Shown one piece after another: positions 43,715-48,860 of a DNA stretch of 64,000 nucleotides. The position numbers and the translations under genes were made by a program. Within the stretch, counting starts at the first letter, position 1. Each line of letters starts with the position of its first letter. Under the pieces are notes generated by a model, which saw only the letters and a list, made by a program, of their open reading frames with translations, made no database searches and was not told the DNA's origin. Source of the stretch: Octopus sinensis (Eukaryota); assembly GCF_006345805.1 (NCBI RefSeq), contig NC_043013.1:6572001-6636000 (forward strand), written 5' to 3'.

Positions 43715-43972
43715 TTATATATATATATATATATATACATAACTGCCCGCATGTCTTTGTCTCTCTATGGTTCCATCTTTGAACGTGTCTATCAAGTAGT
43801 CTAATTTATCCTTAATTCTTTAACAGTTAGACTCAGCTTGTTCTTTAATCGGTTTGACTAATCTGTTCACTGTTAGGAATTATGTGCCAGCATCGAAGTG
43901 TTAACATATATATACATAACTTATATATATATATATATATAATATATATATATATATAATATATATACATAC

Positions 43973-44017
<45 letters not shown>

Positions 44018-44024
44018 TACATAC

Positions 44025-44059
<35 letters not shown>

Positions 44060-44312
44060 CTATATATATTATATATATATATATATACATAATTAATATA
44101 TAGGGTGGCAAGGAAAATTTTGTAGAATTTTATTGCCACCAGCGGCCCAGTAGGAAAAATTAAATAGTCATAGACCATTTTTAAGTTCAACATTAACAAT
44201 TAAGGAACGGCCATAATAGGCCATTCACCCACTAGAATAACAGCCAAAGCTTCTACCGCAAATAAAGATTAATTCCGTAAACAGGAGAAAATTAAAAAAA
44301 CATTTACCCTGT

Positions 44313-44420
44313 AATTTCTTGTACGGTATACCGTTTCATCCGCTGTTTAATGGTAAACTAACCTGATTAAATTAAATCAAGCCAATCTTCCATAAGTCCT
44401 CGGATTCTTCAGCAAGAAAT
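44313..44420 (-). ncRNA. Type I hammerhead ribozyme, intact copy
   Basis: Minus: ATTTCTTG-CTGAAGA-ATCCG..CGGAT-GAAA-CGGTATACCG-TA-CAAGAAAT; predicted cut between 44322 and 44321. Confidence 0.85.
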
Positions 44421-44797
44421 AGCTCAAGTCGGAACAGATATTACACGAGGCATACCCAATCATGCCAAGGCAATATCTGACCTAAAATTTTCAAATCGTC
44501 GCACTCGCGCAAATTTATCGGCAGCAAATAAATATCAGCCGTCGATTCATTACGGAATTAACCAAAAAATTCATAATAATCAATATAGGGTGGCAAGGAA
44601 AATTTTGTAGAATTTTATTGCCACCAGCGGCCCAGTAGGAAAAATTAAATAGTCATAGACCATTTTTAAGTTCAACATTAACAATTAAGGAACGGCCATA
44701 ATAGCCATTCACCCACTAGAAATAACAGCCAAAGCTTCTACCGCAAATAAAGATTAATTCCGTAAACAGGAGAAAATTAAAAAAACATTTACCCTGT

Positions 44798-44903
44798 AAT
44801 TTCTTGTACGGTATACCGTTCATCCGCTGTTTAATGGTAACTAACCTGATTAAATTAAATCAAGCCAATCTTCCATAAGCCCTCGGATTCTTCAGCAAGA
44901 AAT
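44798..44903 (-). ncRNA. Type I hammerhead ribozyme, copy lacking one A of GAAA
   Basis: Same fold, but reads GGAT-GAA-CGG; mutation or homopolymer sequencing error. Confidence 0.65.
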
Positions 44904-45301
44904 AGCTCAAGTCGGAACAGATATTTACACGAGGCATACCCAATCATGCCAAGGCAATATCTGACCTAAAATTTTCAAATCGTCGCACTCGCGCCAAATT
45001 TATCGGCAGCAAATAAATATCAGCCGTCGATTCCATTACGGAATTAACCAAAAAATTCATAATTAATCAATATAGGGTGGCAAGGAAAATTTTGTAGAAT
45101 TTTATTGCCACCAGCGGCCCAGTAGGAAAAATTAAATAGTCATAGACCATTTTTAAGTTCAACATTAACAATTAAGGAACGGCCATAATAGGCCATCACC
45201 CACTAGAAATAACAGCCAAAGATTCTACGCAAATAAAGATTAATCCGTAAACAGGAGAAAATTAAAAAAACATTTACCCTGTAAATTTTCCGACTTGAGC
45301 T

Positions 45302-45408
45302 ATTTCTTGCTGACGAATCTGAGGGCTTATGGAAGATTGGCTTGATTTAATTTAATCAGGTTAGTTTACCATTAAACAGCGGATGAAAAGGTATACCGTA
45401 CAAGAAAT
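45302..45408 (+). ncRNA. Type I hammerhead ribozyme, copy with CTGACGA core and a stem III mismatch
   Basis: CTGACGA 45310-16; ATCTG/CGGAT; GAAA 45385-88; AGGTATACCG-TA; predicted cut after 45400. Confidence 0.7.
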
Positions 45409-45791
45409 TACAGGGTAAATGTTTTTTTTAATTTTCTCCTGTTTACGGAATTAATCTTTATTTGCGGTAGAAGCTTTGGCTGTTATTTCTAGTGGGTGAA
45501 TGGCCTATTATGGCCGTTCCTTAATTGTTAATGTTGAACTTAAAAATGGTCTATGACTATTTAATTTTTTCCTACTGGGCCGCTGGTGGCAATAAAATTC
45601 TACAAAATTTTCCTTGCCACCCTATATTGATTAATTATGAATTTTTTGGTTAATTCCGTAATGGAATCGACGGCTGATATTTATTTGCTGCCGATAATTT
45701 GGCGCGAGTGCGACGATTTGAAAATTTTAGGTCAGATATTGCCTTGGCATGATGGGTATGCCTCGTGTAAATATCTGTTCCGACTTGAGCT

Positions 45792-45898
45792 ATTTCTTGC
45801 TGAAGAATCCGAGGGCTTATGGAAGATTGGCTTGATTTAATTTAATCAGGTTAGGTTACCATTAAACAGCGGATGAAACGGTATACCGTACAAGAAAT
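45792..45898 (+). ncRNA. Type I hammerhead ribozyme, intact copy
   Basis: ATTTCTTG-CTGAAGA(45800-06)-ATCCG..CGGAT-GAAA(45875-78)-CGGTATACCG-TA-CAAGAAAT; predicted cut after 45890. Confidence 0.87.
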
Positions 45899-46041
45899 TA
45901 CAGGGTAAATGTTTTTTTTAATTTTCTCCTGTTTACGGAATTAATCTTTATTTGCGGGGGAGAAGCTTTGGCTGTTATTTCTAGTGGGTGAATGGCCTAT
46001 TATGGCCGTTCCTTAATTGTTAATATATATATATATACATG

Positions 46042-46073
<32 letters not shown>

Positions 46074-46108
46074 TACACACAAATATATATGTATATATAT
46101 ACATATAT

Positions 46109-46161
<53 letters not shown>

Positions 46162-46404
46162 TATATATATATAAATGTATATACACACACATATATATTC
46201 AAATACAGAGTGCGAGGGGACAGAGAAAGAGAGTTAGAAAGGGAAACACACCAAAATGTTATACATATATATATATATATATATACACACATCTCCAATA
46301 TAATCAAACTATATAATTTTTCTAATGCGATGTAATGTATTTAATAAATATAATTATTATTATTATTAATAATAATGATGATGATGATGATGATGATGAT
46401 GGTA

Positions 46405-46899: not shown

Positions 46900-48860
46900 C
46901 CTGTGCTTCAAAGAGACAGGTCTTTCTTTAGGATACGAATTGTACTTAACAAACCTGCTGGCTGGATCACTTAAAGCCTGATAATAACACCAATATTCTC
47001 GATGTGCTTTCCAAACTTGTTAGGGACAGCACCCAACGTTCGAATCACGACCTGAATTATAGCCACTTTCCTCATACTCCAAAGCCTTCCTATCTCGTCC
47101 CTTAATTGCTGGTATTTCTCCATCATTTTTAGCTCTTTATCTTTCACCTTCGAATCACCTGCTATCTATGGTCTTAGCCTCTTTTTCAACTTTATCGATA
47201 AATACGATATCTGGCCGTCTCGACTCTATGACCTCGTCACATTGTATGGGCTCTATATTGTTCCTTTTCCAGTAATCCTTTGGCTTGTGCTCATACCATC
47301 GCTGCACTCTCTCAATAATTGTTTTATCACACAGCTGCCTGTGCAGATATCTGGCCATGTTGTCTTGTCTCCTTTTATTATTCGCGCAGTTCGTGCTTGC
47401 TGCACTCTCTGTCAATGTGGCTTACGCTTCCTCCCTTTCCAGAACACATTCTACATTGTGTGAGTCAGTGCTTTTTATCAAAATGCCACTTGGCATGATT
47501 CGTTCAGAGGTCCTGTTTATGGTTGAGTACAACAAACTAATGCCTCAGGGCAGTCTTTTGAGTCGCCCTTCTGCAGACATTGCAGGTCTTATTCCAGTCA
47601 ATCTCAACTCTAACCGTAAAGATCTAATTGTGCATTTTCTTGTCATACCAAGCTTCCTCCTATTTTCTTTTCTGGTCTGACTTAAACTGTCTTGGGTCTA
47701 CTGTGTCATTCACTTTAAGCTTCCCAACATTTGCATCTCTTCAAACATCTCAATGGCCCAGTGGTTAGGGCAGCGGACTCGCGGTCATAGGATCGCGGTT
47801 TCGATTCCCAGACCGGGCGTTGTGAGTGTTTATTGAACGAAAACACCTAAAAGCTCCACGAGGCTCCGGCAGGGGATGGTGGTGATTCCTGCTCTAGTCT
47901 TTGACAACAACTTTCTCTCACTCTTACTTCCTGTTTCTGTTGTACCTGTATTTCAAAGGGCCGGCCTTGTCACTCTCTGTGTCACGCTGAATATCCCCGA
48001 GAACTACGTTAAGGGTACACGTGTCGGTGGAGTGCTCAGCCACTTACACGTTAATTTCACGAGCAGGCTGTTCCGTTGATTCGGATCAACTGGAACCCTC
48101 GTCGTCGTAACCGACGGAGTGCTTCCACCACATTTAGTGCCCTTGACATATCATGCAAAGCTGTTCTCTTCTGTTACACAAGTCTCATAGTTCACTAATC
48201 TACTTTATTCCTCTTTACATAAAATCTTGCCACATCACTCCGAGGGCTTAGTTCCTTGTTCACTGCCATTAGTCTTTGACCAATTTCTTGTAATTCATCC
48301 TTCTTGCAAAATATAACTCATGTCCTATATTTCATCAAAGGGACAGCTCTAGTTTTTAATTGCTTTGATCATATTCCACCCATTTAGCTCGCCCTGTAGC
48401 ACAAACGGGTCCTCCTCAGATGCTCTTTTCTGAAAACTCTCATTTGTTTTACCTCATTTGTTTAATCACTTTCAATAATACCCAGGTATTTACACCATTC
48501 TTCTCCAACTTCTTTATAGTTTCATCTCCTTCCAGCTTGGTTCTTACTAACTCTTTCTCTTTTTAGTATCATTACTCTACACTTCTCGATCGCGAATTCC
48601 ATTCCAAAAACCTTGCTAATTACCTGAACGGTTGACATCAATCTACCAATTTCTCACTCATTTTTTTTAAGCTTTAGGTCATACATAAACGAGTTGTTTA
48701 TTTTCTCATTGCTAACAGTACACCCTACATGCATCTCTCTTAGAACATTCGATACAGATATCATGCAGATGATAAATAAGCTGGAAGATAGACTGTTCCC
48801 TTGGGAAATTCCTCTGTTAATATCTGCCTCTCCTAGAATTTCACCACACGCTTAGATAAC
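46900..48860 (-). mobile_element. Degraded R4/Dong-clade LINE (RT C-half + REL endonuclease), split by a SINE
   Basis: Minus frames: RGISQGNSLS (cf. RGIFQGDSLS), FMYDLKL (cf. FMDDLKL), KYLGII, RRQDNMARYLHRQLC, RRPDIVFIDK, LLSTIRILRK. Confidence 0.75.
47750..48130 (+). mobile_element. Family C tRNA-derived SINE
   Basis: CAATGGCCCAGTGGTTAGGGCAGCGGACTC..GGTTTCGATTCCC..CGTCGTCGTAACCGACGGAGTG. Confidence 0.88.

Follow-up and report, generated by a model that had tools for sequence, protein, structure and literature searches.

Head-to-head insertions of a 491-nt hammerhead repeat in Octopus sinensis suggest two-ended priming on a single RNA

The window analyzed here, a stretch of 64,000 nucleotides from the Octopus sinensis assembly, holds a repeat insertion at 44088-46024 that comprises about four copies of a 491-nt unit, with a (TA)n tract on either side. 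The copies are arranged as two arms that meet head to head, as an earlier note on this DNA had described, and the outer ends of both arms run into (TA)n, in the sequence and in the tandem-repeat (TRF) rows alike. Table 1 gives the features; phase within the unit is numbered so that +1 is the first base after the predicted ribozyme cut, and A and B are the two sites at which arms end on the outside. Elsewhere in the window, 3.6 tandem copies of a 184-nt unit occupy 27678-28343, which resembles a SINE segment, and the minus strand at 46900-47700 resembles, by eye, a decayed retrotransposon coding fragment.

Table 1. Features of the insertion in the window and copies of a second repeat family
Feature	Position	Strand	Description and basis
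(TA)n microsatellite, left flank (target)	43906..44087	.	TRF row 43906-44102 and sequence
Left arm, 2.45 units	~44088..45284	-	Outer (3') end at site B (phase ~237); inner (5') end at +8 after the cut
Type I hammerhead motif, intact, left arm	44316..44418	-	Predicted cut between 44322 and 44321; descriptor, fold, Rfam RF00163
Second left-arm hammerhead copy	44799..44905, approximate	-	Predicted cut between 44807 and 44806; sequence, fold
Head-to-head junction, 3 bases	45285..45287	.	Between exact end of left arm (+8) and exact start of right arm (phase 379)
Right arm, 1.50 units	45288..46024	+	Inner (5') end at phase 379; outer (3') end at site A (phase 131)
Hammerhead copy, right arm	45302..45408, approximate	+	Predicted cut between 45400 and 45401; sequence, fold
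Site B module within unit	45584..45640, approximate	+	8-bp GC-rich hairpin, then AT-rich tract; 3'-end distribution and fold
Type I hammerhead motif, intact, right arm	45794..45896	+	Predicted cut between 45890 and 45891; descriptor, fold, Rfam
Site A module	45988..46024, start approximate	+	Hairpin, then AT-rich tract; meets (TA)n at phase 131
(TA)n microsatellite, right flank (target)	46025..46198	.	TRF row 46023-46198
Second-family copies	L197:6764-7880; also L198, L083:3690-4095, L207-L246		620 exact B-end matches in genome

This element is a non-LTR retrozyme, a non-coding tandem repeat whose 491-nt unit has a GC content of 179/491 and a longest open reading frame of 67 aa. The search for tRNA genes returned none, and there is no tRNA head; nor does the element hold a frame joining reverse transcriptase (RT) to a GIY-YIG domain, so it is not an autonomous Penelope-like element (PLE). 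Every unit has the type I hammerhead fold (stem I of 8 bp, CUGAAGA, stem II of 5 bp, GAAA and a palindromic stem III), with the predicted cut at GUA^C. A strict descriptor passed two of the four copies in the window. The second left-arm copy failed it, with a GAAA core that is one A short (a mutation or an assembly indel), and in the first right-arm copy an altered base after GAAA disrupts stem III. In a narrow Rfam scan, both descriptor-passing copies matched Hammerhead_1 at 21.4 bits (E 0.049), below the gathering score of 34; a scan of the whole window listed only low-complexity microRNA and snoRNA matches, with the hammerhead absent.

Among the insertions sampled below, paired changes in stem II (411/472 and 410/473, in L057, L130 and L132) are consistent with selection on the fold, and no insertion-wide variant falls in stems I or III or in the invariant core. 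Together with the fold and a peak of 5' ends described later, this conservation suggests that the RNA cleaves itself. Arrays reach 12.4 units, and 128 of 210 arms exceed one unit. Among the sequencing runs listed as containing the unit, none is on record as RNA; all four runs that we guessed to be RNA contain it and join its end to its start, in contigs that cannot separate a circle from a multimer; one of these runs has a single 521-nt contig of one unit.

The earlier note placed the start of the left arm 3-7 nt after the cut and joined it to the right arm through a TTC microhomology. The first statement agrees with our alignment, in which the left arm matches the unit exactly to +8 and a reading of the three junction bases allows a start anywhere from +4 to +8. 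The junction itself is also real, but an exact TTC overlap would be 2 bases shorter than what is assembled, which is a 3-nt insertion or slip (overlap -3). That the junction lies at the cut site is true of the left arm only, as about 113 nt separate the right arm's start from the next cut downstream. By itself, this junction is weak evidence; the family-wide excess of ends goes beyond chance.

No contig spanning the window junction was among the matches listed for other sequencing runs. Contigs of three other runs, one possibly from the source sample, do hold head-to-head joints of the 491-nt repeat, and three of the five with known intervening letters, read by hand, leave the left arm at +4/+5; the other five of ten rows, in which the sequence between the arms was not known, were set aside as possibly normal units mis-laid through the loop II hairpin. 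The missing contig and an assembly indel rate of about 0.8% in the arms could be cited for an artefact of assembly or of chimeric reads, or for DNA recombination among arrays at a later time. We give such explanations almost no credence, given 94 two-arm insertions on many contigs with different junctions and flanks, unequal arms and a strict A+B rule, as well as the analogous joints in short-read contigs of other runs. The recurrence of the layout with differing junctions also answers the earlier note's concern that the inversion was a chimeric-read product: it is not.

Copies were collected from the 2.7-Gb assembly in two sets. The first comprises the window locus and 36 loci that were the best-scoring matches of a DNA search, and is hence biased toward long arrays; the second comprises 80 loci from the first 100 of 149 exact A-end matches (19 were already in the sample and 1 was left out). 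After dropping 8 of 219 arms, old ones with less than 92% identity, and 1 arm whose 5' end lay beyond the fetched stretch, we analyzed 117 insertions (94 two-arm, 23 one-arm) with 210 arm 5' ends. Both outer ends are present in 91 of the two-arm insertions, the other 3 having an outer end beyond the fetched stretch, and at least five of the one-arm insertions have a tiny B partner under the alignment limit. The natural unit from L034 served as the alignment yardstick, and expected end counts come from a life table that allows for how often each position is reached.

Outer ends use two sites, A at phase 131 (103 exact) and B at 230-249 (mostly 234, 237 and 241), which are alike in having a hairpin followed by a similar AT-rich tract. 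Every one of the 91 complete two-arm insertions pairs A with B. The rule holds in 29/29 insertions of the set not selected by ends, for which random pairing would give about half. Twenty further loci picked by their B end (of 635 B-end matches), mostly older subfamilies, have 19 A partners and 0 B partners. These older subfamilies (L147-L166), 87-97% identical to the young unit, retain the A+B rule together with a compensatory change in stem I and a different palindromic stem III; a clear cut peak was not seen in 39 arms of the older subfamily (0 ends vs 0.9 expected, by coarse BLAST ends, with two further ends 1-2 nt upstream). Unselected outer ends lie in TA repeats without exception (129/129; 66/66 in the first set and 63/63 B ends in the second), which bears out the expectation that the insertions favor (TA)n. 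The repeat thus shows an inverted 5'-truncated copy, a tail on one end and a microsatellite target, all traits of non-autonomous Penelope-like elements.

Within an insertion, all units of both arms carry one haplotype, and insertions differ from one another. The arms agree at 235 of 246 informative sites (vs 0.10 in shuffles), discordant calls within arrays number 51 in 22,242, and there are 56 haplotypes among 84 fully covered insertions. Twenty variants, private relative to our sample in that no other sampled insertion has them, are common to both arms in 17 insertions. A search of the sample found no donor-daughter pairs. The earlier note had supposed a self-cleaved multimeric template; a haplotype that stays the same through as many as 12 units speaks for a circle rather than a linear multimer. 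As a separate observation, insertion-wide variants of L031-L146, read in ribozyme sense, include 19 A>G and 9 T>C changes (p=0.004; private variants 11 vs 6, p=0.045), and 12 of the 19 A>G positions are preceded by T, compared with 43 of the 129 As in the unit. With the direction of change presumed, this bias could reflect A-to-I editing of the template copied into DNA.

Uniform arms would also arise if two-ended priming took place on linear read-through transcripts of donor arrays that were already uniform, on one or two RNAs and with no circle, since uniform donors would give uniform daughters. A cleaved multimer would further supply a 5' end that accounts directly for the peak at the cut, and the contigs of the guessed RNA runs cross the cut site, which suits multimers as well as circles. 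This route would, however, require that new variants be spread to every unit, given that each of the 84 insertions is uniform and 56 haplotypes occur among them. Linear RNA also fits poorly with L033, whose arms of 7 and 5 turns both end at the cut, and with the symmetric ends between A and B that accompany an A arm one turn longer. We regard it as highly improbable.

Arm lengths and inner ends suggest that two copying runs shared one template. A and B arm lengths are correlated (rho 0.58, n=62), and in 16 of 94 insertions the inner ends of the two arms lie no more than 5 nt apart in phase (4.0 when shuffled). Near-symmetric junctions number 23, of which about 6 are expected by chance: 14 have equal turns, the A arm is ahead in 9 and the B arm is ahead in 0. 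In 4 of them the shared end falls between the two sites and the A arm has made nearly a complete turn. From this pattern we infer that the A enzyme ran ahead of the B enzyme and that the circle was opened in the stretch between them. Across the 91 complete insertions, 18 junctions are blunt, 37 have 1-3 nt of overlap, 10 have a larger overlap and 26 carry insertions, several of which copy adjacent sequence. Such a mix of blunt, short-overlap and inserted junctions resembles microhomology-mediated joining.

The earlier note had favored a single run of reverse transcription followed by a template switch. Taken together with the published self-priming idea, that account has a single enzyme reach the 5' end of a linear multimer left by self-cleavage, after which fold-back of the cDNA or a template switch yields the inverted arm, resolved at the other fixed site. 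Shared haplotypes and palindromic junctions would follow, self-priming has been proposed for PLE inverted junctions (in the available text of PMC3846280), and 14 of the 23 near-symmetric junctions have the expected equal turns. One cDNA that folds back should contain the short arm within the long one. That is compatible with 73 of 91 insertions, but in 18/91 the short arm lies outside the long arm at a tolerance of 40 nt (24 at 15 nt), which disfavors this route and contradicts it as the sole one unless the switch returns to RNA. A single run with a switch also fails to explain the constant A+B outer ends. In addition, 87% of arms end outside +1..+10, the B arm is longer by a turn in 0/23 near-symmetric cases, and a second family inverts without a cut peak. 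We consider this route very unlikely, and two-ended priming taken by itself highly probable.

The inner ends do cluster at the cut, as the earlier note had anticipated, although the cluster takes in only 13% of arms. Positions +1..+10 hold 28 of the 210 ends, compared with 4.6 expected (6.1-fold, p ~1e-13; life table), and the excess is present in each locus set (12 vs 1.4; 16 vs 3.2) and in both A and B arms. The 10 nt upstream of the cut hold 2 (4.4 expected), and +1..+35 holds 60 (16.9 expected), with further hot spots at +19..+28 (23 vs 4.9; a second peak, at a U-run) and 174-183 (14 vs 4.4). Arms pass the cut about nine times in ten: 6% of arrivals stop by +10 and 12% by +35, and first arrivals stop no more often (4% first, 8-11% later, for +1..+13). 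At these rates, a self-cleaved 5' end with a template switch is not supported as a general mechanism. Both arms of one insertion end within +35 in 11/94, a borderline count (p=0.058). Over about 452 passages through the cut, indels are not in excess; end-to-end template jumping there is rejected on this ground, and the clean passage counts toward a continuous template.

What makes arms end after the cut is probably cleavage rather than a stall. A stalling enzyme, on uncut RNA and still with two-ended priming, would halt at the base of stem I or on a weak A/U-rich hybrid. Of the 28 ends in the peak, 25 lie at +5..+10, where the base of stem I also falls (the stem ends at +8), and few lie at +1, an offset that likewise counts against the mechanism we favor. 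The U-run at the second peak would suit a stall as well, and cleavage was dispensable in vitro for a PLE (PMC11167929, in its available text). Yet the A, B and loop II hairpins, predicted to be stronger than stem I (-10 to -13 vs -6.8 kcal/mol), show no end peak at their 3' bases (0 vs 2.5, 4 vs 2.2 and 2 vs 2.6). Nor do other AATT sites past +35 show an excess (18 vs 27.3 expected). The clearest single case of an arm ending at the cut is L068, whose B arm begins exactly at +1 and is preceded by +1..+21 in inverted form. The second family, with a comparable stem I and a 2-nt stem III loop (a type covered by the accessible part of PMC4209133), has no peak. On balance a stall is rather unlikely. 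Microhomology at AT palindromes was a separate candidate cause of the peak, ruled out by the same AATT counts.

That second family is a hammerhead repeat of 535 nt that looks unrelated to the first; its insertions have the same layout of head-to-head arms, two outer sites and (TA)n flanks, and its B end is similar. We sampled 42 loci (40 from the first 100 of 620 B-end matches, plus L197 and L083), removing palindromic 30-nt matches inside other arms before counting. Of 29 two-arm insertions, 26 are A+B (10 of the A calls being less certain), 3 are unclassified and 0 are B+B; symmetric junctions are again in excess (5/29 vs 0.7). Ends at the cut are not (2/71 vs 1.4 expected; P=0.011 were the 6.1-fold excess to hold), so inversion does not depend on stopping at the cut. 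Hammerheads with a 2-nt stem III loop are said to cleave poorly as monomers (PMC4209133, as far as its available text goes). The missing peak fits cleavage as the cause of the peak in the 491-nt family, as one contrast in small numbers.

A search for a helper covered 30 GIY-YIG loci (30 of 147 matches; 150 scored of 5029 candidates), none with DNA similarity to the unit. At L197:2721-5063 and L198-L201 lies a young RT+GIY-YIG (Penelope-like) family in which several 781-aa frames are intact; its copies end in (TA)n, may carry a tail of about 35 nt and have, by eye, a hammerhead-like motif with a changed core. It shows no DNA similarity to the unit and was set aside as a candidate helper. More head-to-head insertions, with unequal outer ends, lie at L204:7286-8372 and L199:7083-7629, the former with a hammerhead-like motif (by eye).

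With moderate confidence, we favor a reading in which both DNA ends of a break prime on one circular RNA and a minority of runs are ended by self-cleavage; the circular RNA and the cleavage are predictions, and the helper enzyme is putative. A borrowed Penelope-type enzyme pair would likely prime from both ends of a break in (TA)n, each DNA end at its own site, A or B, on the same predicted circle, and both enzymes would roll round it in the same direction. A run would end at random or on an opened circle, which in a minority of cases would have been opened by its own ribozyme, with a few nucleotides lost at the end, and the two cDNA ends would then be joined by microhomology-type repair. For the insertion in the window, the scheme implies that copying primed at B met the cut three times and ran off there on the third, and that the arm primed at A stopped or was joined at phase 379. 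Two results for the PLE enzyme studied in vitro speak against parts of this scheme, at least in the available text of PMC11167929: ribozyme cleavage was unnecessary for insertion, and the start site was reported not to differ between the strands. Among our own counts, the hot spots away from the cut, the first-arrival rates and the missing peaks in the second family and the older subfamily also weigh against it. More tentatively, Penelope-type retrotransposition may be intrinsically two-ended, with a dimer that holds the circular RNA through a two-site element and primes both ends of the (TA)n break simultaneously, and with the hammerhead as a stochastic terminator of rolling-circle copying.

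These young insertions offer countable rules, each open to testing in the PLE system already available in vitro with a 491-nt RNA: an outer end of each kind, A and B; a single haplotype per insertion; arm lengths that go together; and a peak of stops behind the predicted cut. Two-ended insertion templated by circles would, if true, give RNA circles a separate way into animal genomes, and the more tentative reading above would account at one stroke for the inverted arm, the one-sided tail and the tandem arrays. Searching titles and the opening parts of abstracts, we found no report of the two-site rule, of haplotypes shared between arms or of the cut-site peak; supplements and most subscription papers lay outside this search, and a prior description is possible.

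Among known systems, L1 twin priming is comparable, in which two primers from one target site act on one RNA and leave a head-to-head inversion. There, the internal position of the second primer varies and the two segments have little overlap; the present insertions have two fixed sites, and the same unit is copied again and again in both arms.

Animal non-LTR retrozymes, like this element, are tandem repeats of low GC content that code for no protein, have one type I hammerhead per unit and lie in dispersed arrays, for which a circular RNA template and a PLE helper have been proposed (PMC7229834; preprint 10.64898/2026.07.22.740005; both in their available portions). Those retrozymes derive from PLE pLTRs, according to the accessible part of the preprint (10.64898/2026.07.22.740005), and their RNA circles have been shown, with rolling-circle insertion proposed rather than shown (PMC7229834, available text). 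By the same portions of PMC7229834 and 10.64898/2026.07.22.740005, our unit of 491 nt is slightly above the described range of 150-450, and its stem III, of 4 bp with a 4-nt loop, is longer than the usual 1-2 bp. Head-to-head insertions, fixed A/B ends, (TA)n targeting and a cut peak were not found in the available text of either source, where the word 'inverted' occurs 0 times in PMC7229834 and once, among the references, in the preprint.

PLE insertions, as described in the available parts of PMC8557442 and PMC3846280, carry an inverted 5' copy and a tail on one end, are biased toward microsatellites and have been attributed to self-priming. Ours are like them in the head-to-head inverted arm, the one-end tail, the microsatellite targets and the microhomology junctions. 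They differ in having no open reading frame, a tail of about 106 nt (129 nt in the second family) rather than 30-40, and a one-end tail rule that is near absolute; moreover, those papers invoke self-priming or endonuclease resolution, as far as their accessible text goes, and not two coupled priming events on one RNA (PMC8557442, PMC3846280). The origin of tandem and inverted PLE structures and of the one-sided tail is described as undefined in the available text of PMC8557442. A biochemical counterpart is PAc, a purified PLE protein (Poseidon, Anolis) that, in the accessible portion of PMC11167929, cuts and extends both strands of AT-rich DNA, is a predicted dimer and starts at two internal sites bounding the 'tail', all features that our insertions call to mind. 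The PAc sites are adjacent and show no strand difference, whereas each end of our insertions uses a different site, and ribozyme cleavage was without effect for PAc (PMC11167929, same portion). Overall, the inverted layout is a known PLE trait; the quantitative fossil record of how its two arms were written is new.
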